Origin: Candidatus Sabulitectum sp.
GTDB taxonomy: Bacteria; Fermentibacterota; Fermentibacteria; Fermentibacterales; JCC-6
Length of the DNA: 62,277 nucleotides
NCBI GenBank assembly: GCA_029938555.1
Contig: JAOZUR010000010.1
Span: forward strand, 1 to 62,277
Reading direction: 5' to 3'
Shown: piece by piece, positions 9,864 to 47,135 of the stretch
Position numbering within the stretch: position 1 is the stretch's first letter
How the letters are laid out: the number at the start of each line of letters is the position of its first letter
Notes under the pieces: generated by a model
Database searches by the model: none
Seen by the model: only the letters and a program-made list of their open reading frames with translations
What the model was told of the DNA's origin: nothing
Position numbers and translations under genes: made by a program

Positions 9864-10471
9864 TAAACACCTCCTGAAGCTGGAATCAAGCCAGCAGCAA
9901 TAAGAGCATCAAGTCCGTCTCTCACTGAGTTTGTAACCGCCCTAGAAGTAATTGTGCTTCCAGTAATAGCGTCAAGACCACTTTCCCCTCCACCGTCTTT
10001 TTTCAAAACAAGGGTGGATGCACTAAGCTGAGGGAACTGGTAAAGAAATTTAGCAGGATTAGAAAGATTAGCACCAAGACCAGGGGTTTCCTGCTGATAC
10101 AGAACTGTAGTACCTGTGATTATACCATCAGTTTTAACAGCAATCATGGTCTGAATAGTACTGGAATAACCCTTACCATAAGCAACAAATAAATAACCAA
10201 GTTCAAATCCTGTTGAATCAGTCACAGAAACAACAGAAAGAGTTTGATCAACTTCAAGATATGGGTTAGTTAACCCCTCTACTGATAAACTGTCGAAAAA
10301 CAATACGCCTGAGGCAAGTGAACCTGCAACATCAATCATTGCATCAATCTTAGCCTGAGCCTTCTGCTCTGTTATTATTGGCGCAGTAACCGAATTAACA
10401 AACCCTAGAGCCACTGCTGCTATAACTGCTACAAGCATAAGCATAAGACCAACTCTAAAAATCTCACCCAT
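9863..10471 (-). CDS. rnfG: Rnf complex subunit G
   Basis: N-terminal TM, ETPGLG, FMN-attachment-like DAITGSTITS. Confidence 0.92.
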   Translation of the reverse strand: MGEIFRVGLMLMLVAVIAAVALGFVNSVTAPIITEQKAQAKIDAMIDVAGSLASGVLFFDSLSVEGLTNPYLEVDQTLSVVSVTDSTGFELGYLFVAYGKGYSSTIQTMIAVKTDGIITGTTVLYQQETPGLGANLSNPAKFLYQFPQLSASTLVLKKDGGGESGLDAITGSTITSRAVTNSVRDGLDALIAAGLIPASGGV

Positions 10472-11546
10472 TTTTCTTCACCTCCCCGAAGCTCAATGGT
10501 TTGGTGTATCTATCAATAAGTGGAGTGCAAAGGTTCATGAGAAGTATTGAATAACTGCACCCCTCAGGATAACCGCCCCATCTTCTGATTATCATGGTGA
10601 GAAGACCAGCTCCAATGCCGAAAATAATTCTTCCCTTTTTAGTAACAGGAGTTGTAACCATATCAGTCACCATGAAAAAACCACCAAGAATAACTCCTCC
10701 AGCCAACAGATGGAAAAGAGGATTACCGTCAAACCAGCCGGGACCTCCAAACAACCAACCAAACAGTGCAACTGATCCCAGGTAACTAAGAGGAAGTCGT
10801 AACTCTAAAACACCTCGTAGAACCAGATAGATAGCCCCTAATAAAAGCATAATCACACTGGTTTCACCGATGCAACCACCAATTCGACCCATGAAGAGGT
10901 TTTTCATACTCTCTTTTGAGAAAAGCATAACCCTGACTTCTTCTGATCTTTCAGTTTCACCTTCCCATGTGAATGTCTGCTTCAGAGCATTCAAAGGAGT
11001 TGCACCAGAAAGGGCATCAAGCTCGCCTGATTCACTCAGCTGCGCTGTTGATACACCACAAGCCTGAACATCAATCCTTTGACCGTCTCTCCACTCCATA
11101 GGAGCAATCCAGCCAGCGGTCATCAATACAGGAAAACTTGCCACAAGAAATGCGCGACCCAAAAGAGCAGGGTTCACAATGTTAAACCCCAGACCTCCAA
11201 AAGCCTGTTTTGCCACTGCTATTGCGAAAGCACTTCCAAGGACAGGAATCCACCATGGAACACCTGATGGTACATTGTACGCCAACAACAAACCAGTAAC
11301 AACAGCACTTCCATCAAATGCAAAATTAACAGGTCTTTTCATGAATTTCAGGCATAACCACTCAGTAAGTACAGCAGCACCAACACTTGCTGCCACAAGC
11401 AATAATGCCTTGGGACCAAAAAACCAGAAAGCCGCGATAAGAGCTGGAATAAGTGCAATTACAACATCCCACATTATTTTTTTTGTACTCTGTGAAGAAC
11501 CCACATGAGGTGAGACTGCAAGATCGAAAATTCTATTTTCAGCCAT
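10464..11546 (-). CDS. rnfD: Rnf complex subunit D
   Basis: SPH, FGGLGFNIVNPAL, FMN motif DALSGATPL, GGCIGETS, FMVTDMVTTP. Confidence 0.95.
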   Translation of the reverse strand: MAENRIFDLAVSPHVGSSQSTKKIMWDVVIALIPALIAAFWFFGPKALLLVAASVGAAVLTEWLCLKFMKRPVNFAFDGSAVVTGLLLAYNVPSGVPWWIPVLGSAFAIAVAKQAFGGLGFNIVNPALLGRAFLVASFPVLMTAGWIAPMEWRDGQRIDVQACGVSTAQLSESGELDALSGATPLNALKQTFTWEGETERSEEVRVMLFSKESMKNLFMGRIGGCIGETSVIMLLLGAIYLVLRGVLELRLPLSYLGSVALFGWLFGGPGWFDGNPLFHLLAGGVILGGFFMVTDMVTTPVTKKGRIIFGIGAGLLTMIIRRWGGYPEGCSYSILLMNLCTPLIDRYTKPLSFGEVKKNG

Positions 11547-16366: not shown

Positions 16367-16960
16367 CTACAAAAAACTACTTTTAATCTCTGCCCATGTA
16401 TAACGATTCAAGCTTGTTCCACCGTGACCCGTTATAGTCATGTCCCATACAGACCAGTAAAGATTTACACCTGCTATGTACCCGTAGGTATAAACACCAC
16501 CTGTGAAGTCAAGTTCGAAAGTATCACCTGTTTGATAAGGTAATACACACCATACCAAGGTAGTATCTGAACCTTCATAACTGGCATAATTGTAGCTATC
16601 AAGACCATCATATACATCAACAAGAGAATATGGAGCTACCCCTGTATCTACTTCTGCACTTATAGAAATGTAGGAACCTCCATCCATAGCATAACCATCA
16701 TATTCATAACCGCTGTAAAATTCAATGGTTATTGAATCAATACTTTCCGGAACCGTTAAAAGACCACTGTTAAAAGACCTGTACACAAAAGCCAAATCAA
16801 CATCATCGTATGAAGTAGAATAAATTGCGCCAGTATCATTAACTACCCACGGATATTCAAGTTCCCAATCAGCACCAAGTTCGGAAAAAGGAAAAGTCCA
16901 GACAGTATCAGCGAATACAATCGAACTAAAAAAAACAAGAAACAAGATTGTTTTTTTCAT
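16367..16960 (-). CDS. Secreted hypothetical protein with a C-terminal TWAEIKSSFL tail
   Basis: ATG at 16960 after GGAGG; signal peptide MKKTILFLVFFSSIVFA; acidic, Tyr-rich, beta-type composition. Confidence 0.8.
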   Translation of the reverse strand: MKKTILFLVFFSSIVFADTVWTFPFSELGADWELEYPWVVNDTGAIYSTSYDDVDLAFVYRSFNSGLLTVPESIDSITIEFYSGYEYDGYAMDGGSYISISAEVDTGVAPYSLVDVYDGLDSYNYASYEGSDTTLVWCVLPYQTGDTFELDFTGGVYTYGYIAGVNLYWSVWDMTITGHGGTSLNRYTWAEIKSSFL

Positions 16961-17138
16961 TACAGCCTCCCCTGTTATGAAACACAAAACAGCAAATCAT
17001 AACAACGATATTATTAACTTATTCAATCGTGTCAACCAATCTCGCATGATCCATGTACCAAAACTTTTTAGTGGGTTGATTATTTTCTTCTACTGAAATA
17101 GAATACAGTTAGTATTTATAATAAATAGGGGGGAAATT

Positions 17139-17759
17139 GTGAGAGTTATTCTTGTTTTGTTAGTTGTAACATTTTCTGTATCAGCAGAAACTGTATTTGT
17201 AGAGAACTGCGATTTATGGGCAGAAATAGATGGAATTAATCTAATTTTAGAAAATGCAGATGAATTAGACTCTGAAACTCTTGAAGGCTTGTTTCAACAG
17301 ACGGTGGAAATTGTTGTTTCTTCTGAGTTATCGCAACAATTCGAAGATCTCAGGGCTGATGCTTTTGAACATGATAGTTTCCAAGAAATCGATGCTTATA
17401 CAAACCGAGCCGGTATTGCTGTTAATGTATTCATCATGGGTGAGTCAAACAATATAGGTGTGAATGTTGCAGCTTTTTACGAATTGAGTACGCCAGATTC
17501 AGAAGCTAATTCTTTTTTCTTAGTGTGTACAGGCGGTTTCTATGCCGGTAACAATCAGATAGGTACTGCAGAGCTACCTGCATGGATGATTAGAACAGAA
17601 TCAAGCGCACAGGCTGTTATAGACCATGACCAAGCGCAAGAATGGTTAAGCTTCTGGACAGACATTCAGACTTCTCTTGATGGGTATTTCCTAGAAATAG
17701 CAAACCATACAATCCTAAATCTGAATCAAGTTCTCTTGACACCTAAAATTTCGGTATAG
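17139..17759 (+). CDS. Secreted acidic hypothetical protein
   Basis: GTG after a G-rich SD; signal peptide MRVILVLLVVTFSVSA; fills the gap between neighbours. Confidence 0.7.
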   Translation: MRVILVLLVVTFSVSAETVFVENCDLWAEIDGINLILENADELDSETLEGLFQQTVEIVVSSELSQQFEDLRADAFEHDSFQEIDAYTNRAGIAVNVFIMGESNNIGVNVAAFYELSTPDSEANSFFLVCTGGFYAGNNQIGTAELPAWMIRTESSAQAVIDHDQAQEWLSFWTDIQTSLDGYFLEIANHTILNLNQVLLTPKISV

Positions 17760-27530: not shown

Positions 27531-29504
27531 TTATCTTCTTAGTATAACGATTTCTACTCTTCGATTAAGAGACCTTCCTGCTTCATCGTCATTTGCAGCA
27601 GCAGGTCTTCTTTCGCCAAACCAGATAGGTTCAATCTCTATGTTGTAATCACTAAGTTCGGCTTCAAGATATTCTGCCACATTCAAGGCTCGTTCAGTGG
27701 AGAGCCCATCGTTAAATCCAAAAGCTCCATCACTATCAGCGTGACCTTCAACTGAAACAAATACACCTGGATTATTCTTAAGTGTTTGAACTACCCTGTC
27801 CAGATCCGGATACTGATCACTGCGTATGGCGCCAATACCGTTATCGAAATAGATTGTGGACATAGATAATCCATCGCGTTCCTGCGCAACAATCATGAAC
27901 TGAAAAAGATTAATCGGATCTGTTTCATAATACAGATAACTCAAATCTTCATTACTCTGTCGGCAATTCACGTCCAGTGGAATACCACCTCTAACCCTGG
28001 TTAGTCCAAGTGTGGAAGGATCAATACGATTGCGATCCATCCAGACTTTGCTTACCCTGAAACTCAAACTTGCCTCAATTATATCAACACTGTCTACAGC
28101 ACCATAGATTATTTCAGGATCTACCATAACAAGCTCTGCATGTCGTGCCGATATAAGGAAATCACCTATTTGATCAAGTGAAGCTTCAAAGTAGTAGTAA
28201 CCTTCATCTTCTTCAACAATTGCAGCAGGCATTCTAACTAAAGAATTATCTTCTTCAACTCTGTAAAGTCGTAGTAGTCTTAACTCAAGATTATTCTGCT
28301 CAAGCCAGTATCGTGGAATCCTGAAGCCCACAGAAAGGTCTCTAATGTCTTCCTCTGTGAATGTCGCTCTTGAAGGGAAGTAAGCAAATAAAACCTGTTT
28401 ATCATCAAGTTTAAGAGTGCTGTTCAGAGGTATCTGATCGAACTGAGCCACCACTAAAGAATCGTCCTGAACATCTCTGTTGGCCCAAAGACTAATCTCA
28501 TACAGGTCTGTTCCAGTTTCCCATATTCTTCTATCAACCAAAGGTGGAAGAGGAACCCTTGGTTCATTCTCTATCCATTCTGTACCGCCAAATCGGAAGG
28601 TCAATCCACCTCTGTGTCGACCCCAAGTAGACTGAAGATCATTCATAGGCAGAGAAAGTGCATAATCGAACGAAACAGGCAATGATCCTTCGTATCTTGC
28701 GGAGAACCCAGCAGAAAGTTCCGAAGATTTGCCAAGAGTTCTAGCACGATATCCAGCCCTAAAGCCCCATGTGGAAGTTAATCCAAACCATTTTTCTAAA
28801 CCAAGGGCAATATCAATATCTTTTTCACCATCAACATCATCTAAAGACCAGTCAATCTGGACAACAGGTGTGATAAACTTAGGATAAAATGCTGCCCCAA
28901 GTGATATCTCCAATGGAAGAACATCTTCTTCGCCAATACCCATATCTGGAGCAATTAGATTTCTGGCTACGCCTGCAAGGGTAACCCTTCTTCCAAGCTC
29001 AGCCTGAAACCCAAAATCAGCTGATATTGCTTTTGCCCTAAACCCATTTGTTGTAAAAAGAGGATCATACGAAGTAAATTCGTTATCTATGTAATCTCTG
29101 AACATATACCTACCGGAAAAACCAAATGACACAGGAAAAATTCCTGGACGAAAAGCAATTGCTAGCAACCCTTCTCCTTGGGTACACTGATCTGAAGCAT
29201 TGAGTATATCAATACCAAGACTGAAAGCTGAATATTTTGTTATTGGTTGAACATAACCAAGAGCACCATAATTAATAGAATTCAAGTCCATGTTCGGATA
29301 AAAACTAGTGTACTCAGTTCCAACCATTATTCTGCCGGATCTCAACAAACCTGCTGGATTCCACCAAGCAGCCCAAGCATCATCTGATAAAGCTACAAAT
29401 GCACCAGCCATTCCCATGGCACGAGAGCCAGGATTAAGAACATCAGCCTGAATAATAGAAGCAAACAAAAGAAGAACTGTTAAAATAATTATCTTGCTAC
29501 GCAT
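27531..29504 (-). CDS. PorV/FadL-like outer-membrane barrel fused to two PGF-pre-PGF-like repeats and an OmpA C-terminal domain
   Basis: GSRAMGMAGAFVALSDD...WWNPAGL; two repeats F.[IV]...W...N; OmpA motifs EGHADSDG, LSTERA, GERRP, NRRVEI. Confidence 0.8.
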   Translation of the reverse strand: MRSKIIILTVLLLFASIIQADVLNPGSRAMGMAGAFVALSDDAWAAWWNPAGLLRSGRIMVGTEYTSFYPNMDLNSINYGALGYVQPITKYSAFSLGIDILNASDQCTQGEGLLAIAFRPGIFPVSFGFSGRYMFRDYIDNEFTSYDPLFTTNGFRAKAISADFGFQAELGRRVTLAGVARNLIAPDMGIGEEDVLPLEISLGAAFYPKFITPVVQIDWSLDDVDGEKDIDIALGLEKWFGLTSTWGFRAGYRARTLGKSSELSAGFSARYEGSLPVSFDYALSLPMNDLQSTWGRHRGGLTFRFGGTEWIENEPRVPLPPLVDRRIWETGTDLYEISLWANRDVQDDSLVVAQFDQIPLNSTLKLDDKQVLFAYFPSRATFTEEDIRDLSVGFRIPRYWLEQNNLELRLLRLYRVEEDNSLVRMPAAIVEEDEGYYYFEASLDQIGDFLISARHAELVMVDPEIIYGAVDSVDIIEASLSFRVSKVWMDRNRIDPSTLGLTRVRGGIPLDVNCRQSNEDLSYLYYETDPINLFQFMIVAQERDGLSMSTIYFDNGIGAIRSDQYPDLDRVVQTLKNNPGVFVSVEGHADSDGAFGFNDGLSTERALNVAEYLEAELSDYNIEIEPIWFGERRPAAANDDEAGRSLNRRVEIVILRR

Positions 29505-32500
29505 ACTGTTCCAGTCACCTCCCCTACGGGGGCTAAGCCATGAAAGATATAAACTCCAGAAGGAACCGGTACCCCTACATTATCTTTACCATCCCATACT
29601 GGCTCATCTCCGGTGATGGTTCTAACCGGTACTCCTTCTATATTCATAATAGTAAGAGTTATCATGGCATCTTCTGCAGCCAGCCAAACAAAAGAAGCTG
29701 TATCATTTATACCATCACCGTTAGGTGTAAATGGTGTTGGAATCACTGTCATTCCCTGTGAAAAATCTCTTACAAGAGCTATATCAAATTCTGTATAAAT
29801 ATTCTCCTGTACCTGAGCGGTATCAGAAAACTGAATATACGGTTCTTGATTTACAAGAAGAGGTACATTTCCAATTGGAACATCTTCGAAATAGTAATAT
29901 CCAGTATTATCAGAATCTACGCTAATACCAAGACCTTCGATGAATACTGTTATGTTCTCTAACTTTCTGCCTGTGTAAACATCTGAAACAATGCCACCAA
30001 GAGAACCTGTGGGCCCCTGGGCTGTTGCTGAAGACATATTGCTGTATGAGCTTTCTCCATTAGGATTTGTATAAACGCATGTTGCCCAATAGTAATAACC
30101 CAGACCATTAACAACATGAGAATCAACCCAATTCACTGTATCCGTGCCAAGTTCAACTATATAATCTGGTTCAGGGGCAAGAGGGCTAATTGATCTATAG
30201 ATTCTATATGATGTTAAACCCTTGCCATCCAAACTCGCTTCCGGTGGATCCCAGCTGAGAGGAATGAAACCATCATTACCACTTACTGCCACAAGATTCT
30301 GCGGAGGTGCAAATTCACCTGTTACAAGAAACGAACCGTATACTGATTTATTATTAGTTTCATCATGTTCTATCATTGAGGAATCAGGGTCCACAAAAGC
30401 CACAAGATACCTATCTCCTATATCAAAATAAGTAAATTTGTAACTGCCTTTAAAAGAGGTTGTCTCGCCACTCTCAAGTGGTGGTACATCAAAAAGCACA
30501 ACAGGGGTGAAAAGAGAATCAGGATCATCTGTTACATAATACACCAATTGAGTTTCAGATGAAGGTCCTTGACCGTCGTTACTTACAATTACACTAAAAC
30601 CAACATTCTGCCCTACTTCAAAAGGAGGGGAAACATCAGGTGATGCAATGGAAACACTTAAATCAGGATAAGCAAGTATTACAGTAAACTGACTAATGGC
30701 ATCATCAAGCCCCCTATTACCAGCACCGGCTTGAACATTAACAATGTGTGTTCCAGGCTGATCAGGACACAACAAAACGAACTCTGCACTTGCAGATGAG
30801 TTTTTGTAAACAAGATTACCCAAAAATGCTGGAATATTAACATCTCCTGCAAAAACAGCCGGTGGAATTAATTTTGCCCAAGCTCCAACCGCAACATATC
30901 CACCGGTATTAGAAAGAGAAACCGGTATTGTGAGTTCGCCTCCTGGAGGGGCAAAAATTGTTGTATCCACTGGAAAAGTAATGGTTAACTCTGGATCTCG
31001 AGCAAAACGATATGCTGTAATGGCAAATTGCTGTGTTTCGGATGGATCACCTGGGTCCGCCCAGGAATTTGCCGCAATTCGCACAGTCCATGCGCCTGGC
31101 TCAGGAGATTCCACCACAATTCGTTCTACAGGACTTTCAGAAGTAACACCAGCTGGAAGAAGGTAGTTGTATTCCACATTAGTTGGTGAGATAAGAGTAA
31201 TGTCAAGATCTACTTGAAGGTCTGGAGATGGAGATGGAACATCTGTATACCCGAGACCGGTTGACAACCAGCTGGTATATGCAGGAACGTACATTATCCA
31301 TTGTTTAGTACCAGTACCCTCTGCAATTTCAGAATTAGCCCAGAATAATCTGTCAACTTCCTCAGAGAAATAAGTACCTGGCAAATGATAACCATCAAGA
31401 AGCCCAAAGCCACTTTCTGTGGTTGCGTAACCGGAAGCAGGAGGACCTGTATTGCTCTTTAATGGAATTGCACATGCGGCCATAATTGCCATTGCGTCTT
31501 CAGGGTTAAAAAGATCACCATATTTTTCTTCGCATATTGCCAGAGCGGCAGATACAAATGCTGCTGCCATACTGGTACCAGCAAAACGAGTATACGATTC
31601 TTCCCCTGGCCACCTGTTCACAGGGTCATCAAGCCACTGCCCTGCGTACTGTGCATTGGTGGTAGCCACACCATTTTGCATTGTTGATTCCAGATACTCG
31701 CCACCTGGAGCTAAAATTTCAGGTTTCAATCTACCATCCGCCGTTGGTCCTCTTCCACTGTATGAGGCAACTAAAACATTGCCAGTATCATCTGGAAGGA
31801 AGGTAACAGCTCCTACAGTAATAGCATTTCTTGCGATTGCAGGGGAAGGTATAAATCCTGCAGCTGGATTATTGCCAGAACTAAAAACAGAAATACCACC
31901 GTTTCTAGCGTGAGTATCTACCACCTGACAAAAGGCATCATAAGAAAGAGAACCATCAAAACCCCAGGAATTATTTACAATAAAACAATCAGCAGAGAAA
32001 AAATCTGTATAAAAAGTTGCAAACTGCGAAGATGTCATGGACTGTGGTCTTTGAATAACAAAAAGCTGGGCATCTGGGGCGCCACCACTACCATTGTATT
32101 CGCAATCTAGATCTACCCCGCCCCTGGAAGCAATAACGCCACATACGGCGGTTCCATGGCCATCAGGGTCTGGGACTCCTTGATATATTGCATCAACCAA
32201 ATCTGGATGGTCGGCCCAAACTCCTGTGTCTAAAACACCAATACGAACACCCAAGCCCGTATAATAAGTCCATAATTCCGTTAAACCAGAAATCTGACGA
32301 CTATCATCTGCCTGTACATTAACAGAATGAGAAGTTGCTGTCAGAGATCTATTTGGCGTAGCCCATAGAACTCCACTTGTAACAGGTCTTGATACAAGCC
32401 AGTAATCCTCATACAAATAACTACCGTTTTCTGGTACAGAGCCAGATGTCATTTTAACTATCCAATCACCGGTCCAGTACCTATCTTCCGGTAAAACTGC

Positions 32501-32917
32501 ATTATTCCAAGACCATCTGGTGATTGTTTTTACAAACCCTGAACCTGAAAGAGCATTCAGATCGGGGGATTGCCCCACCAAGGCAATGAAACTGTTTTTA
32601 TCTGGCGCATAACCAGCGGGCCATAAGCCTGCCTGGTCCAAAATCAAAAGATCCATAGGAGTCAAAGATCTGTAAACTTCTACGCGAACAAGATCTCCTG
32701 GTGAACCTGGCAACGATGATGTCAATAAAAGACCCGAACCTGACTCACTGGATATATAATCTTCATCTAGCTGTTGCAGAATGGTCTGTCGTTCTTGATA
32801 ATTCATACTAGACAGATCTTCAATAGATATGTAATCAGACGTTTCAATCAGTGGATAATCGCTAGATAAAAAGAAAACCAATAGGAAAATTGAAAATACA
32901 GACATAGTTACTCCCAT
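29489..32917 (-). CDS. S8 subtilase with PPC, CARDB, FN3-like and carboxypeptidase-regulatory-like domains and a T9SS type B/FlgD-like C-terminal domain
   Basis: Catalytic triad VLDTG, HGTAVCG, GTSMA; GRLKPEILAPG; C-terminal PTPFTPNGDGIND...WDGKD...PSGVY. Confidence 0.9.
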   Translation of the reverse strand: MGVTMSVFSIFLLVFFLSSDYPLIETSDYISIEDLSSMNYQERQTILQQLDEDYISSESGSGLLLTSSLPGSPGDLVRVEVYRSLTPMDLLILDQAGLWPAGYAPDKNSFIALVGQSPDLNALSGSGFVKTITRWSWNNAVLPEDRYWTGDWIVKMTSGSVPENGSYLYEDYWLVSRPVTSGVLWATPNRSLTATSHSVNVQADDSRQISGLTELWTYYTGLGVRIGVLDTGVWADHPDLVDAIYQGVPDPDGHGTAVCGVIASRGGVDLDCEYNGSGGAPDAQLFVIQRPQSMTSSQFATFYTDFFSADCFIVNNSWGFDGSLSYDAFCQVVDTHARNGGISVFSSGNNPAAGFIPSPAIARNAITVGAVTFLPDDTGNVLVASYSGRGPTADGRLKPEILAPGGEYLESTMQNGVATTNAQYAGQWLDDPVNRWPGEESYTRFAGTSMAAAFVSAALAICEEKYGDLFNPEDAMAIMAACAIPLKSNTGPPASGYATTESGFGLLDGYHLPGTYFSEEVDRLFWANSEIAEGTGTKQWIMYVPAYTSWLSTGLGYTDVPSPSPDLQVDLDITLISPTNVEYNYLLPAGVTSESPVERIVVESPEPGAWTVRIAANSWADPGDPSETQQFAITAYRFARDPELTITFPVDTTIFAPPGGELTIPVSLSNTGGYVAVGAWAKLIPPAVFAGDVNIPAFLGNLVYKNSSASAEFVLLCPDQPGTHIVNVQAGAGNRGLDDAISQFTVILAYPDLSVSIASPDVSPPFEVGQNVGFSVIVSNDGQGPSSETQLVYYVTDDPDSLFTPVVLFDVPPLESGETTSFKGSYKFTYFDIGDRYLVAFVDPDSSMIEHDETNNKSVYGSFLVTGEFAPPQNLVAVSGNDGFIPLSWDPPEASLDGKGLTSYRIYRSISPLAPEPDYIVELGTDTVNWVDSHVVNGLGYYYWATCVYTNPNGESSYSNMSSATAQGPTGSLGGIVSDVYTGRKLENITVFIEGLGISVDSDNTGYYYFEDVPIGNVPLLVNQEPYIQFSDTAQVQENIYTEFDIALVRDFSQGMTVIPTPFTPNGDGINDTASFVWLAAEDAMITLTIMNIEGVPVRTITGDEPVWDGKDNVGVPVPSGVYIFHGLAPVGEVTGTVCVAR

Positions 32918-44679: not shown

Positions 44680-46395
44680 TCAAAAACAGCAGAGCAAATA
44701 TGGAACTAAACCTGCTAGTGCCAAACTACTGTCAGCTATGACCCTAACGGACAATTCAGAAGGAAATGATTCCTTCTCAAGATAAATATAAGACAATATC
44801 AAAATAACAGGTGCAATTACAAAACCAGAAGCACACATTGGAAATTTACCTAATAAAACTGCAATAAGCTGCACAAGGCCACTTAAAACTGCTGATGTTA
44901 TCAAAATTTTTCTACACCTTGCTGCACCTAAATGCAACGGAAGCGTATCCATGCCCAATAAGGCATCTCCTTGCAAATCCACAAGATCAAGGAATAATGA
45001 TCTTCCAAAAAACAAAAAGGCTAAAGATGTTGGCCATACAAATAATTTCAAACTAAAATCTAGTCCAGCTAAAGATACTGCAGGCAAAATACAAACAAGA
45101 AAACTCCATGCTAAAGTAAACATGATTTCTCGAGAACCTGGGATTGCCCGAAGCAAATTAGAGAAATAATTTTTCCCTATCAAGGGCATGGCATAAAGCA
45201 AACAGAAAAGAGTGGCAATCGCAGTCCAGAATAACCATAATTTACCTAGATAAATAGATAAAACAACTGCTCCTAAAAAACTAAAACCAGCAAGAAAAAT
45301 CATTTTCCCTTCATTTGCTCTTATGAATTCCTGTCGTTTTTGACTTGTCATGGTTACCCGCCTGCATTCAAGAACAGCGGTAAAATTAGTAAATGACCAA
45401 AGAAGAAACCCAGCAGCAATTCCAGCAACTGCCCATTCTTCACCACCAAGAGTTTTGCCCTGTGCAAGTGTTATAACCAAGGCGATCAAAGGAATATGAA
45501 CACCACTGAATATCAGGCTTCTAAATACTCTGCGTAGCCGACCGGCCCCTGTTGATTCTCCTTGTATTTCAAGCAACCGCTCTCGAACCTTTCTTATGCT
45601 CCAGCCAGGAGTGGAAGCACCGGCGGATAACAGAACTCGACGATACTTCACAATAATATCTGCATCAAGTTCATCTTGACTCTCTATTTTAAATACAGGC
45701 AGCCCCGTTTCCCCAGCAATTAATGCAAGCCTTTGGGTATTAGCACTGTGTCTTCCGCCAACAATCACAACAGCATCAGCTTTGTCGAGTAATTCCCTGA
45801 GTTCTTTCTGCCTTCTGGCAGTAGAGTCACAAATTGTATTGGAAGACTCTATCGCAGGCCATCGCTTCTTCAGAATAGAAAGTATCTCAGATAAGGTAAT
45901 GCTGTTTTGTGTTGTCTGGGACAACAAAAATGGTTTTTTAAGTTCTGGTAAATTAAGAGCATCTTCCACAGACGAAATAACTCTACCTGAAGTACCAGCT
46001 GATGAAAGAATTGCTTTTACTTCATGATGGCCAGAATCACCAAAAATAATAACATCATAACCTTTTTTTGACATTTTAGTTGCAATTGAAAGAGCTCTTC
46101 CAACTCTTGGACATGTAAGATCCCGTAAGTTCAAAGGAAGTTTTCTTAATCGATTTCGTTCTTCAACTGTAACACCGTGGGTTCTTAAAAAAAGTGTACC
46201 ACCAGACTCATCCCATGGTTCATGGGATGTGGCAACTCCTCTGTCTTTTAAGGCCTTCAATACTTGAGGATTGTGTACAAGGGGGCCATAAACACGAAAT
46301 GGACCCTGCCCCTTCTTGATTTCAGTAACAACGCTGTCAACAGCCCTGCGCACTCCCCAGCAGAAACCTGCGGTCTTTGCAACAATTACACTCAT
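44680..46395 (-). CDS. ispH: 4-hydroxy-3-methylbut-2-enyl diphosphate reductase fused to a UbiA-like prenyltransferase domain
   Basis: AGFCWGV, GPLVHN, RTHG, DLTCP, SQTT, NTICD, GGRHSANT, AGASTP; then multi-TM region with DLVDLQGD..LG.DTLP. Confidence 0.9.
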   Translation of the reverse strand: MSVIVAKTAGFCWGVRRAVDSVVTEIKKGQGPFRVYGPLVHNPQVLKALKDRGVATSHEPWDESGGTLFLRTHGVTVEERNRLRKLPLNLRDLTCPRVGRALSIATKMSKKGYDVIIFGDSGHHEVKAILSSAGTSGRVISSVEDALNLPELKKPFLLSQTTQNSITLSEILSILKKRWPAIESSNTICDSTARRQKELRELLDKADAVVIVGGRHSANTQRLALIAGETGLPVFKIESQDELDADIIVKYRRVLLSAGASTPGWSIRKVRERLLEIQGESTGAGRLRRVFRSLIFSGVHIPLIALVITLAQGKTLGGEEWAVAGIAAGFLLWSFTNFTAVLECRRVTMTSQKRQEFIRANEGKMIFLAGFSFLGAVVLSIYLGKLWLFWTAIATLFCLLYAMPLIGKNYFSNLLRAIPGSREIMFTLAWSFLVCILPAVSLAGLDFSLKLFVWPTSLAFLFFGRSLFLDLVDLQGDALLGMDTLPLHLGAARCRKILITSAVLSGLVQLIAVLLGKFPMCASGFVIAPVILILSYIYLEKESFPSELSVRVIADSSLALAGLVPYLLCCF

Positions 46396-46477
46396 AAGGG
46401 TAAGATACAAAAAAAACAGGTGTTTCCGTTAACCTTATCAAAAAAAGATTTTTATGAATATCACCTATAACTAAGAA

Positions 46478-46501
46478 GGCCGGCCTCAGAAGAGACCGGC
46501 C
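46478..46501 (-). terminator. GC-rich terminator-like hairpin after the 46533-47135 gene
   Basis: Minus strand GGCCGGTCTC-TTCT-GAGGCCGGCC followed by TTCTTAGTT. Confidence 0.65.
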
Positions 46502-46532: not shown

Positions 46533-47135
46533 CTAAAATGTTGCCTTGAGTGAACCCCATGTGGTGTTATCAAGAGCAGCAGCTGGAATAGTAGCAAGAG
46601 CGGAGATAAAGTAATCACCAGTCCATGGTTCCCAAATGATGAAATCATCACTGAAGAAACTATGACCACTGTTGGCTACATCACCGAGAATTGCTGGCCA
46701 TCCACCGGCACTCATCTCTGTGTTCTGGAATCCCCAGAAGTTACCTTCTGCTACGATTGGTGTAGCATAAGAAATGATCTGTGGAGCATAATGAATAGCA
46801 GTGATCATGGTCTGATCAAGCTGTGTCACTGGTGCCATTGCATCGCCATTCCAAAGTTCGATATAGGTATCGGAAGTATCCCATGGGTAGCTACTGTGGT
46901 GGTAGAACCAGAATTCAAGTTCTTCAACTGCTGCGCTGGTTTCACCTGGAACGAAGTCCTCAGTGTTGAACCATACGCCTCTGTACATTCCACCCCAAGT
47001 GAGCCACTGTGCGGTTCCATCATCATACACGAGCCAATCAGCATCTGTTCTCTGGATAGGATCGAGATTAACTGCGACCTGTCCTGCGAAAGCTGCCAAT
47101 GAAAGTACAGCAAGAATTGCTATTACGTTCTTCAT
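46533..47135 (-). CDS. Secreted hypothetical protein with a C-terminal TWGSLKATF tail
   Basis: Signal peptide MKNVIAILAVLSLAAFA; YDDG motif; Trp/Asp-rich; AAGGAG SD; own downstream hairpin. Confidence 0.85.
   Translation of the reverse strand: MKNVIAILAVLSLAAFAGQVAVNLDPIQRTDADWLVYDDGTAQWLTWGGMYRGVWFNTEDFVPGETSAAVEELEFWFYHHSSYPWDTSDTYIELWNGDAMAPVTQLDQTMITAIHYAPQIISYATPIVAEGNFWGFQNTEMSAGGWPAILGDVANSGHSFFSDDFIIWEPWTGDYFISALATIPAAALDNTTWGSLKATF

Follow-up and report, generated by a model that had tools for sequence, protein, structure and literature searches.

A short conserved C-terminal tail on unrelated exported proteins of Candidatus Sabulitectum: a candidate address tag linked to a type IX secretion envelope

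The window analyzed in this work (the whole stretch of 62,277 nucleotides from Candidatus Sabulitectum sp., phylum Fermentibacterota, which is contig C6 of an assembly of 151 contigs and 3.03 Mb) carries two minus-strand genes whose products, here called proteins 16367 and 46533 after their coordinates (Table 1), end in ...SLNRYTWAEIKSSFL and ...ALDNTTWGSLKATF, respectively. These two ends share a short tail, which in protein 16367 runs one residue further after its F. A preliminary description of this DNA had reported two exported proteins of about 200 amino acids (aa) with a common tail on dissimilar bodies. Both open reading frames (ORFs) are confirmed, with Sec-type N-termini, and full-length homology between their products was not detected: the best BLASTP E-value between them is 0.39 and, when the alignments of both families are compared by hhalign, the signal peptides alone align (56% probability). 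Pfam and NCBIfam contain no model matching either protein, even at E-values up to 10, and BLAST clustering of the tail proteins of the genome places protein 46533 among five paralogues and leaves protein 16367 as a singleton. The present analysis shows that the tail is strictly C-terminal and modular, that it is conserved across the phylum, that it is swapped with the C-terminal domain (CTD) of type IX secretion system (T9SS) cargo, and that it is restricted to SprA-bearing genomes in the panel searched. The reading that we favor, and to which the sequences lend about an even chance, is that the tail is a C-terminal address or docking tag tied to a T9SS-type envelope, to which the CTD is the alternative.

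The pattern [TS]W[GAS]x[ILVM]K has 35 matches in the 7678 ORFs of at least 60 aa of this genome and 32 of them fall in the last 15 residues, a segment that represents 8.7% of all residues (binomial P = 5e-31 for terminal position); the C-terminal enrichment that the preliminary description proposed to look for is thus found genome-wide. Three ORFs contain the internal matches: two are short (79 and 61 aa) and the third, of 475 aa, has hydrophobic stretches reminiscent of a transporter. A hidden Markov model (HMM) of the tail retrieved 31 tails with W (W-type) and seven tails in which F replaces W (F-type), and gave no internal match above 10 bits in the genome. Among these 38 ORFs of at least 100 aa, one from the window (10464-11546, 360 aa, ending ...SFGEVKKNG) was left out as unconvincing, and the 37 others form the set of tail proteins considered hereafter. 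The consensus over these about 37 proteins is [AS]-L-x-R-x-[ST]-[WF]-[GA]-x-[ILV]-K-x-x-F, then zero to three residues. The 31 W-type tails, aligned on Trp, read [AS]-L-[EQD]-R-x-[TS]-W-[GA]-x-[ILV]-K-[AST]-[ST]-F and show: (i) W, K, and G or A after W in all 31, (ii) L at five residues before W in 27, and (iii) F at +7 from W in 22, the protein ending exactly at +7 in 23. These tails stop 7-10 residues past W and their conserved length is 14 residues. As already stated for the two proteins of the window, neither a transmembrane helix nor a basic tail is present in these sequences.

Tail proteins are small: their called lengths range from 118 to 321 aa around a median near 214 aa, and the start of the longest one may be over-extended. 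They are also acidic, a feature previously noticed on the two window proteins that extends to the whole set: their computed isoelectric point (pI) is below 4.6 in 37 cases out of 37, compared to 99% for CTD cargo and 68-72% for other signal-peptide proteins. According to a crude rule for signal peptides, and with crude gene calls as the comparison, a signal peptide is found in 25 of the 37 tail proteins and in 474 of 2571 other genes (odds ratio 9.2, P = 1e-10), an enrichment that the preliminary description had also proposed to look for. Four of the 12 signal-peptide misses had been shortened at an in-frame TGA by ORF calling, and regain a signal peptide on reading through this codon.

Several tail proteins look like exported selenoproteins because of an in-frame TGA with a Cys before it and a hairpin after it, and because of a tRNA-Sec gene in the genome (one tRNA-SeC according to aragorn). 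Six candidates were recognized (C82:27651-28130(+), C79:12906-13409(-), C22:13536-14030(-), C144:200-688(+), C97:33341-33775(+) and C75:3685-4041(-), C numbers being contigs of the genome). In each, the TGA follows a Cys at zero to two residues (C-U, C-x-U or C-x-x-U), all six stops being TGA. It lies about 15-25 residues past the signal peptide in five of them (four tail proteins and the tail-less C97 paralogue), the C75 candidate having no signal peptide in the stretch read. A hairpin of at least six base pairs starts 15-25 nucleotides (nt) downstream of the TGA in all six, with a CAGGUG-type loop in five. Five of the six bear the tail (with F for W in four) and the sixth is the tail-less paralogue.

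The bodies that carry the tail are diverse. BLAST clustering of the 31 W-type proteins, done without signal peptide and tail, gives 17 clusters, of which 10 contain a single protein, and no Pfam-A (E <= 0.01) or NCBIfam (E <= 0.1) model is common to more than two of the 37 tail proteins, the HMMER filters being such that very short models may be missed. The domains found are CBM96/DNRLRE (two proteins), a disaggregatase repeat (two), a TGF-beta-propeptide-like jelly roll (two), a lamin-tail domain (one) and three others (one each). Judging from such matches, the bodies that can be named (CBM96/DNRLRE, lamin-tail, beta-sandwich, propeller-like) are predicted to be non-catalytic binding modules. 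Within families, the tail is kept in 119 of 120 homologues of protein 46533 among the matches listed (in the exception, the motif is followed by extra residues), in all nine sequences of the protein 16367 family and in 67 of 68 homologues of the lamin-tail protein (the one without it has a 'partial' annotation). Since the tail of this last family reads ...W-A-F-I-K-A-F-V-x, the spacing from W to F is conserved even where F is not the last residue.

AlphaFold2 models place the tail outside the predicted fold of the body. Protein 46533 (55 sequences) is modeled as a beta-sandwich with a mean predicted local distance difference test (pLDDT) score of 86.8, whose last ten residues are drawn as a short helix free of the body (pLDDT about 54), the tail following the last strand of the body nearly without a linker; protein 16367 (nine sequences) gave a beta-rich but poor model (pLDDT 66.7, about 50 for the tail). 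A Foldseek search of the PDB with the model of protein 46533 found no match at E <= 0.001 and returned weak lectin- or CBM-like rows only, and an ESM Atlas search with the last 25 residues was uninformative (best score 0.76). A short conserved tail on otherwise unrelated exported proteins is the hallmark of sorting signals such as LPXTG, PEP-CTERM and the T9SS CTD, and the features of the present tail are, as read from these sequences, the signature of a sorting or docking tag. The candidate sorting signal of the preliminary description is supported as a short, modular and strictly C-terminal tail on unrelated Sec-exported proteins, but its amphipathic TWxx[IL]K helix is not established: the helix of AlphaFold2 has a pLDDT of about 50, and the hydrophobic moment of the 8-residue core is larger as a strand (0.45, compared to 0.25 for control 8-mers drawn at random from the same proteins, whose 95th percentile is 0.54) than as a helix (0.29 compared to 0.24).

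The genome encodes the type IX translocon SprA, three PorU-like sortases and three PorV-like barrels, and thus the SprA-PorV-PorU core of a T9SS. The type A CTD model has 111 matches in the genome and a CTD HMM built here retrieves 119 ORFs (median, 568 aa). None of the 37 tail proteins matches this HMM and no ORF combines tail and CTD. Two tail-body families nevertheless have paralogues ending in a CTD and three have paralogues devoid of tail. The propeller-like family was examined further by running its profile, with the tail removed, against 1.84 billion representative sequences. Among the best 150, 91 have the tail at their end and two have a CTD; of the other 57, at least 10 end in the variant [ST]-[LIM]-G-x-[IV]-[KR]-x-x-[FY]-x, one cluster with such a variant including a member named Ca. 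Coatesbacteria. In the CTD forms of this family, the W-G-x-I-K-x-x-F core gives way to a Gly/Ser/Pro linker and a CTD while the stretch before the Trp is kept, and a close sister sequence carries the tail. Tail and CTD therefore behave as alternative modules at one position. Likewise, none of 17 ORFs with a CTD-model match, in 20 loci from two lineages outside the phylum, has the core motif. The tail genes of these 20 loci are interleaved with CTD cargo genes; in the genome analyzed here, the distance between tail genes and CTD genes is not different from random placement.

Other T9SS genes deserve mention in their own right. Each of the three PorU-like genes (1237-1247 aa, or 1221-1237 aa as called ORFs; C49:9267-17337 and C118:113029-117778) has its own CTD; two are nearly in tandem on C49 and the third adjoins the canonical PorV on C118. 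In the window, the region 27531-32917 of the minus strand encodes a 1142-aa subtilase (29489-32917; Peptidase_S8, CARDB and CarboxypepD_reg) ending in a CHU_C type B T9SS domain, directly followed by a 657-aa protein that is PorV-like in its N-terminal part and has an OmpA domain at its C-terminus. From their domain content, the second protein of this pair could be the dedicated shuttle or anchor of the first, a type B cargo.

The tail is a property of the phylum. Close homologues of the window proteins are named Ca. Fermentibacteria, Sabulitectum or Aegiribacteria. A strict DNA pattern ([ST]-W-[GA]-x-[ILVM]-K-x-x-[FY]-stop) has 23 matches in the genome compared to none when reversed, and is present in all 70 genomes of the phylum (1-30 matches each, reversed controls giving 0-1) compared to three of 101 genomes of another phylum, with one match each. 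In 116 public-genome loci retrieved with the tail DNA pattern, among the matches listed, 2452 ORFs contain 130 terminal matches and no internal one; most of the 80 loci with titles are from Fermentibacteria, Sabulitectum or Aegiribacteria, many others being named 'uncultured bacterium' only. PorV is also present in 70 of the 70 genomes of the phylum. One 98%-complete genome (G018) has only one or two strict tail matches but keeps 23 CTD matches, SprA and PorV paralogues, and so provided no informative contrast. Three metagenome-assembled genomes labeled Victivallales, Deltaproteobacteria and Syntrophaceae (G070, G071, G073; loci L011, L021, L056) have Fermentibacterota-type tails, which are probably mis-binned since they lie on one small contig each.

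Tails also occur beyond the phylum. A panel of 91 outsider genomes was searched, with one genome per family. When one extra residue is allowed before the stop, four outsiders have 35-51 matches to [ST]-W-G-x-[IV]-K-x-L-Y-R and the rest 0-2; a fifth tail-rich outsider has 10 matches to the original pattern. In the phylum of one of the four, 12 of 12 genomes have 16-62 matches, and the other three of the four lie outside that phylum. Seven more outsiders encode a conserved tail protein of about 130 aa, detected by full-length match. This protein is single-copy, with a signal peptide, an Fn3-like domain and the end R-T-W-G-S-I-K-A-M-F-R (L replaces W in one orthologue). It belongs to no Pfam or NCBIfam family, and its nearest Atlas clusters, as judged from their scores (0.97-0.98), are mostly from Ignavibacteriota and Bacteroidota. 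For experiments on the tail, this protein may offer the best way in.

Of the 91 outsiders, 24 encode SprA. All five tail-rich outsiders and all seven with the 130-aa tail protein are SprA-positive, and none of the 67 SprA-negative outsiders is tail-rich or encodes the 130-aa protein. With families that are not independent, one-sided Fisher's tests give P = 0.004 for the first four tail-rich genomes (4/24 compared to 0/67), about 9e-4 with the fifth included (computed by hand) and 5e-8 for 11/24 compared to 0/67. This co-occurrence shows that the tail is restricted to T9SS lineages, not that it depends on the T9SS. Of the cross-genome profiling suggested by the preliminary description, the part concerning T9SS components was thus fruitful for SprA but not for PorV-family counts. 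The machine that this description left unnamed is probably linked to the T9SS envelope, since the tail takes the position of the CTD and SprA accompanies it throughout the genomes searched.

In the favored reading, small tail proteins would first be exported by Sec, and an envelope protein would then read the tag and set the destination of the protein, the tag acting in place of the T9SS CTD. Two options can be considered: (i) the tag would be a minimal signal by which the T9SS exports or shuttles the protein, or (ii) it would be a docking peptide fixing modules to a T9SS-dependent surface partner. A bolder proposal, to which we give only tentative credit, would make the tail a third, minimal class of T9SS signal (about 14 residues) by which small folded modules would be exported without CTD. 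Such modules might be handed directly to the translocon or to a shuttle; alternatively, they might dock onto CTD cargo and ride as passengers through the very wide SprA pore, which would explain that tail proteins stay under about 320 residues. The conserved 130-aa tail protein would then be the ancestral client, and would open the tail to experiments in cultured species. In PMC11969387, the last 22 residues of Hbp35 from P. gingivalis are reported to be absolutely required for secretion of a fusion to green fluorescent protein, so a very short T9SS-linked signal would not be absurd.

Several results weigh against an address tag tied to the T9SS envelope. Phyla with a T9SS may share ancestry, and this rather than function could be why the tail co-occurs with SprA. 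By the patterns used, which also miss variants, 12 of the 24 SprA-positive outsiders show no tail, and a T9SS is therefore not sufficient for the tail. Tail-less paralogues exist. With its 14 residues, the tail lacks the CTD motifs B, D and E and falls below the 43-55 residues of the shortest CTDs described in PMC11969387. The genome also has one secretin gene and two YkuD transpeptidase genes, so that other routes or fates are open. Furthermore, these searches found no reader of the tail: no family other than CTD proteins recurs beside tail genes, either within the genome or across phyla. Within four genes on either side of tail genes, CTD proteins and generic ATPases or sensors alone recur; the recurrent neighbors in the 116 fetched loci look like synteny, and none of them is common to the 20 loci of the two other lineages. 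Two candidate readers were also profiled and rejected, neither the copy number of the PorV family nor GWxTD proteins separating tail-bearing from tail-free SprA-positive genomes. A complex prediction for the canonical PorV and mature protein 46533, run without controls, gave a score of 0.00, an absence of answer that counts neither for nor against.

GWxTD proteins may nonetheless be linked to the T9SS, since 20 of the 22 outsiders (out of 91) that have them are SprA-positive. In the genome, C151:39900-51200 (locus L227) encodes, in this order, ExbB, two ExbD, TonB, a 780-aa protein without family, a PorV-like barrel, two proteins with a GWxTD domain and one with a CTD.

Four other functions of the tail, besides an absence of function, have to be weighed. 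The first, which we regard as unlikely, is that the tail would not be a transport signal but a donor beta-strand, inserting into an adjacent subunit or scaffold by beta-augmentation and thereby joining diverse small lectin-like subunits into a surface layer, a fibre or a multi-module complex. The moment of the 8-residue core (0.45 as a strand compared to 0.25 in controls, and more amphipathic than as a helix), the non-catalytic binding modules suggested by the Pfam-named bodies, the small size of the proteins (214 aa compared to 568 aa for CTD cargo) and the near absence of a linker after the last body strand all suit such a strand. However, the neighborhood searches, in the genome and across phyla, found no candidate acceptor or scaffold, all 17 unrelated bodies would need one common acceptor, and replacement of the tail by a secretion domain suits an address label better.

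Somewhat less probable is a reader-free interfacial anchor, in which W, I/L and F together with Lys would bind membrane or lipopolysaccharide (LPS) in-plane. Trp, Lys and Phe are typical of interfacial peptides; this composition of the tail and the short free terminal helix drawn by AlphaFold2 agree with this proposal. The conservation of the tail (W, K and G/A in 31 of 31, fixed W-to-F spacing) is nevertheless far stricter than that of generic amphipathic anchors, its helical moment is ordinary (0.29 compared to 0.24) and eight residues are very short for stable binding. Equally doubtful is that the tail would be cleaved, or that its invariant Lys would serve as a covalent anchor, the protein being linked to peptidoglycan or LPS by a PorU-like sortase or a YkuD L,D-transpeptidase. 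Braun's lipoprotein and T9SS cargo are precedents for it; the Lys (31 of 31), the two YkuD and three PorU-like genes and the Y-R or Y-K ends of variants in other phyla are in agreement with it. But this Lys is not terminal in Fermentibacterota, Arg replaces it in one of the 10 variant tails seen, and YkuD and PorU copy numbers, which were not profiled, show no tie to the tail.

More improbable still is that the tail would be the ligand of a periplasmic PDZ protease or chaperone, as a degron, a quality-control signal or a removable propeptide, on the model of DegS or Prc, which read the C-terminal Y-x-F of outer-membrane proteins or apolar tails. Although most tails end in Phe after small residues (F at +7 in 22 of 31, end at this position in 23), the W-to-F spacing holds with one to three residues past F, as in the ...KAFVx of 67 of 68 lamin-tail homologues, and Y-R closes the tails of other phyla, so that recognition cannot be of a free carboxylate on F. 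A degron kept on about 37 stable families across the phylum would also be hard to rationalize. Finally, chance resemblance or common descent of whole proteins, for which the shortness of the motif and nothing else speaks, can practically be dismissed in view of the positional bias (P = 5e-31), the 17 unrelated clusters and the 70 of 70 genomes compared to controls of 0-1.

The coordinates of the two window genes and of their parts are given in Table 1. The ORF of protein 16367 spans 16367-16987, which gives 206 aa from a TTG and 197 aa from the ATG at 16960; this ATG is favored as the start because a sigma-70-like match lies 48 nt upstream of it, five such sites being found compared to 4.2 expected in shuffles. 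The 46533 gene looks monocistronic, with a terminator-like hairpin past its stop. From their translations, the flanking genes are housekeeping ones (cysteine desulfurase, UvrB, an IspH fusion), and no dedicated operon was seen among the genes flanking either tail gene. The divergent neighbor of the 16367 gene (17139-17759, plus strand) encodes an acidic protein of 206 aa that has a signal peptide but neither a family nor the tail. The 576-aa ORF at 44680-46410 (minus strand) has an N-terminal half that reads like IspH/LytB and a C-terminal half with several hydrophobic, membrane-spanning-looking segments, which would be an unusual fusion.

Table 1. Coordinates of the two tail genes of the window and of their parts, with the genomes that encode the conserved short tail protein
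Position (strand)	Feature	Remark
16367..16960 (-)	Gene, 197-aa exported protein, beta-rich body without named family, tail at end	
16910..16960 (-)	Signal peptide, about 17 residues, ...VFA then DTVW	Cleavage site placed by eye
16370..16414 (-)	Tail coding region S-L-N-R-Y-T-W-A-E-I-K-S-S-F-L	25.1 bits, tail HMM
17008..17035 (-)	Sigma-70-like promoter match TTGACA, 16 nt, TAATAT; 10/12	Consensus match only
46533..47135 (-)	Gene, 200-aa exported beta-sandwich protein (predicted), tail at end	
47085..47135 (-)	Signal peptide, about 17 residues, ...AFA then GQ	Cleavage site placed by eye
46536..46577 (-)	Tail coding region A-L-D-N-T-T-W-G-S-L-K-A-T-F, then stop	22.7 bits, tail HMM
46478..46501 (-)	Terminator-like GC-rich hairpin, 32 nt past the stop of the 46533 gene	
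	Conserved tail protein of about 130 aa	Outsider genomes G176, G190, G224, G230, G237, G246, G257; loci L210-L221

The tail is real, widespread, matched by no Pfam or NCBIfam model and absent from the literature searched, and a match to an already characterized signal, which would have undermined the preliminary description, was looked for in vain in these sources. Its motif strings were found in no paper, supplementary files being outside the search; no paper was found that pairs Fermentibacteria with type IX secretion, and the broader T9SS literature is silent on the tail. Consequently, tail proteins are annotated as unrelated 'hypothetical proteins', although, in several uncultured phyla, each genome has 5-40 or more proteins that bear the tail. 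C-terminal sorting signals shape bacterial surfaces, and the known classes have led to their machines (sortase, exosortase, rhombosortase, T9SS). Together, the link with SprA and the exchange with the CTD make this orphan motif a testable hypothesis on the T9SS outside Bacteroidota. A tail HMM would better the prediction of secretomes in these phyla and a 14-residue tag, if sufficient, would offer a compact means to display proteins at the surface or to secrete them.

Compared to known signals, the tail resembles PTS1/PEX5, the Y-x-F read by the PDZ domain of DegS and the beta-signal of the BAM complex in that a few C-terminal residues, usually with an aromatic end, could be read by a receptor; unlike these signals, its spacing to the very end varies by zero to three residues. 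It does not have the features of the beta-signal of outer-membrane proteins: there is no alternating hydrophobic pattern, the G position is not occupied as expected, the residue two before F is A, S or T, and F need not be terminal. Moreover, unlike outer-membrane barrels, the body of protein 46533 is predicted to be a soluble beta-sandwich (pLDDT 86.8). A C-terminal Lys, the linking residue in Lpp-type attachment to peptidoglycan, is seen in none of the 31 aligned tails. Unlike the Y-R-ended tails of the four outsiders, those of Fermentibacterota end in F. Like LPXTG, PEP-CTERM, MYXO-CTERM and GlyGly-CTERM, the tail is a short C-terminal motif found on many unrelated exported proteins of one genome but, unlike these tripartite sortase-type signals, it shows in its sequences no transmembrane helix or basic cluster after the motif, and we know of no sorting enzyme for it.

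The tail also shares features with the T9SS signals. Like the type A CTD (TIGR04183 / PF18962 Por_Secre_tail, FlgD_ig-like), the tail is C-terminal on Sec-exported proteins, occupies the same position of homologous bodies, is found only in SprA-bearing genomes of the panels and has equally acidic carriers. The type A CTD differs from it in being folded, as a beta-sandwich that includes motifs B, D and E and spans 43 to about 80 residues, and tail proteins are much smaller than CTD cargo; neither PF18962 nor TIGR04183 is among the Pfam and NCBIfam matches of the 37 tail proteins. The type B CTD model (CHU_C / TIGR04131) also has no match in these 37 proteins, and this model works on the genome since it recognizes the subtilase of the window. 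Unlike the type B cargo gene of the window, tail genes have no dedicated barrel gene alongside, in the genome and in the other lineages. Nevertheless, the type B CTD, with its dedicated PorP/SprF-type shuttles, shows that more than one signal class can coexist in a single T9SS and, according to PMC12618676, F. johnsoniae uses separate shuttles for separate CTD classes.

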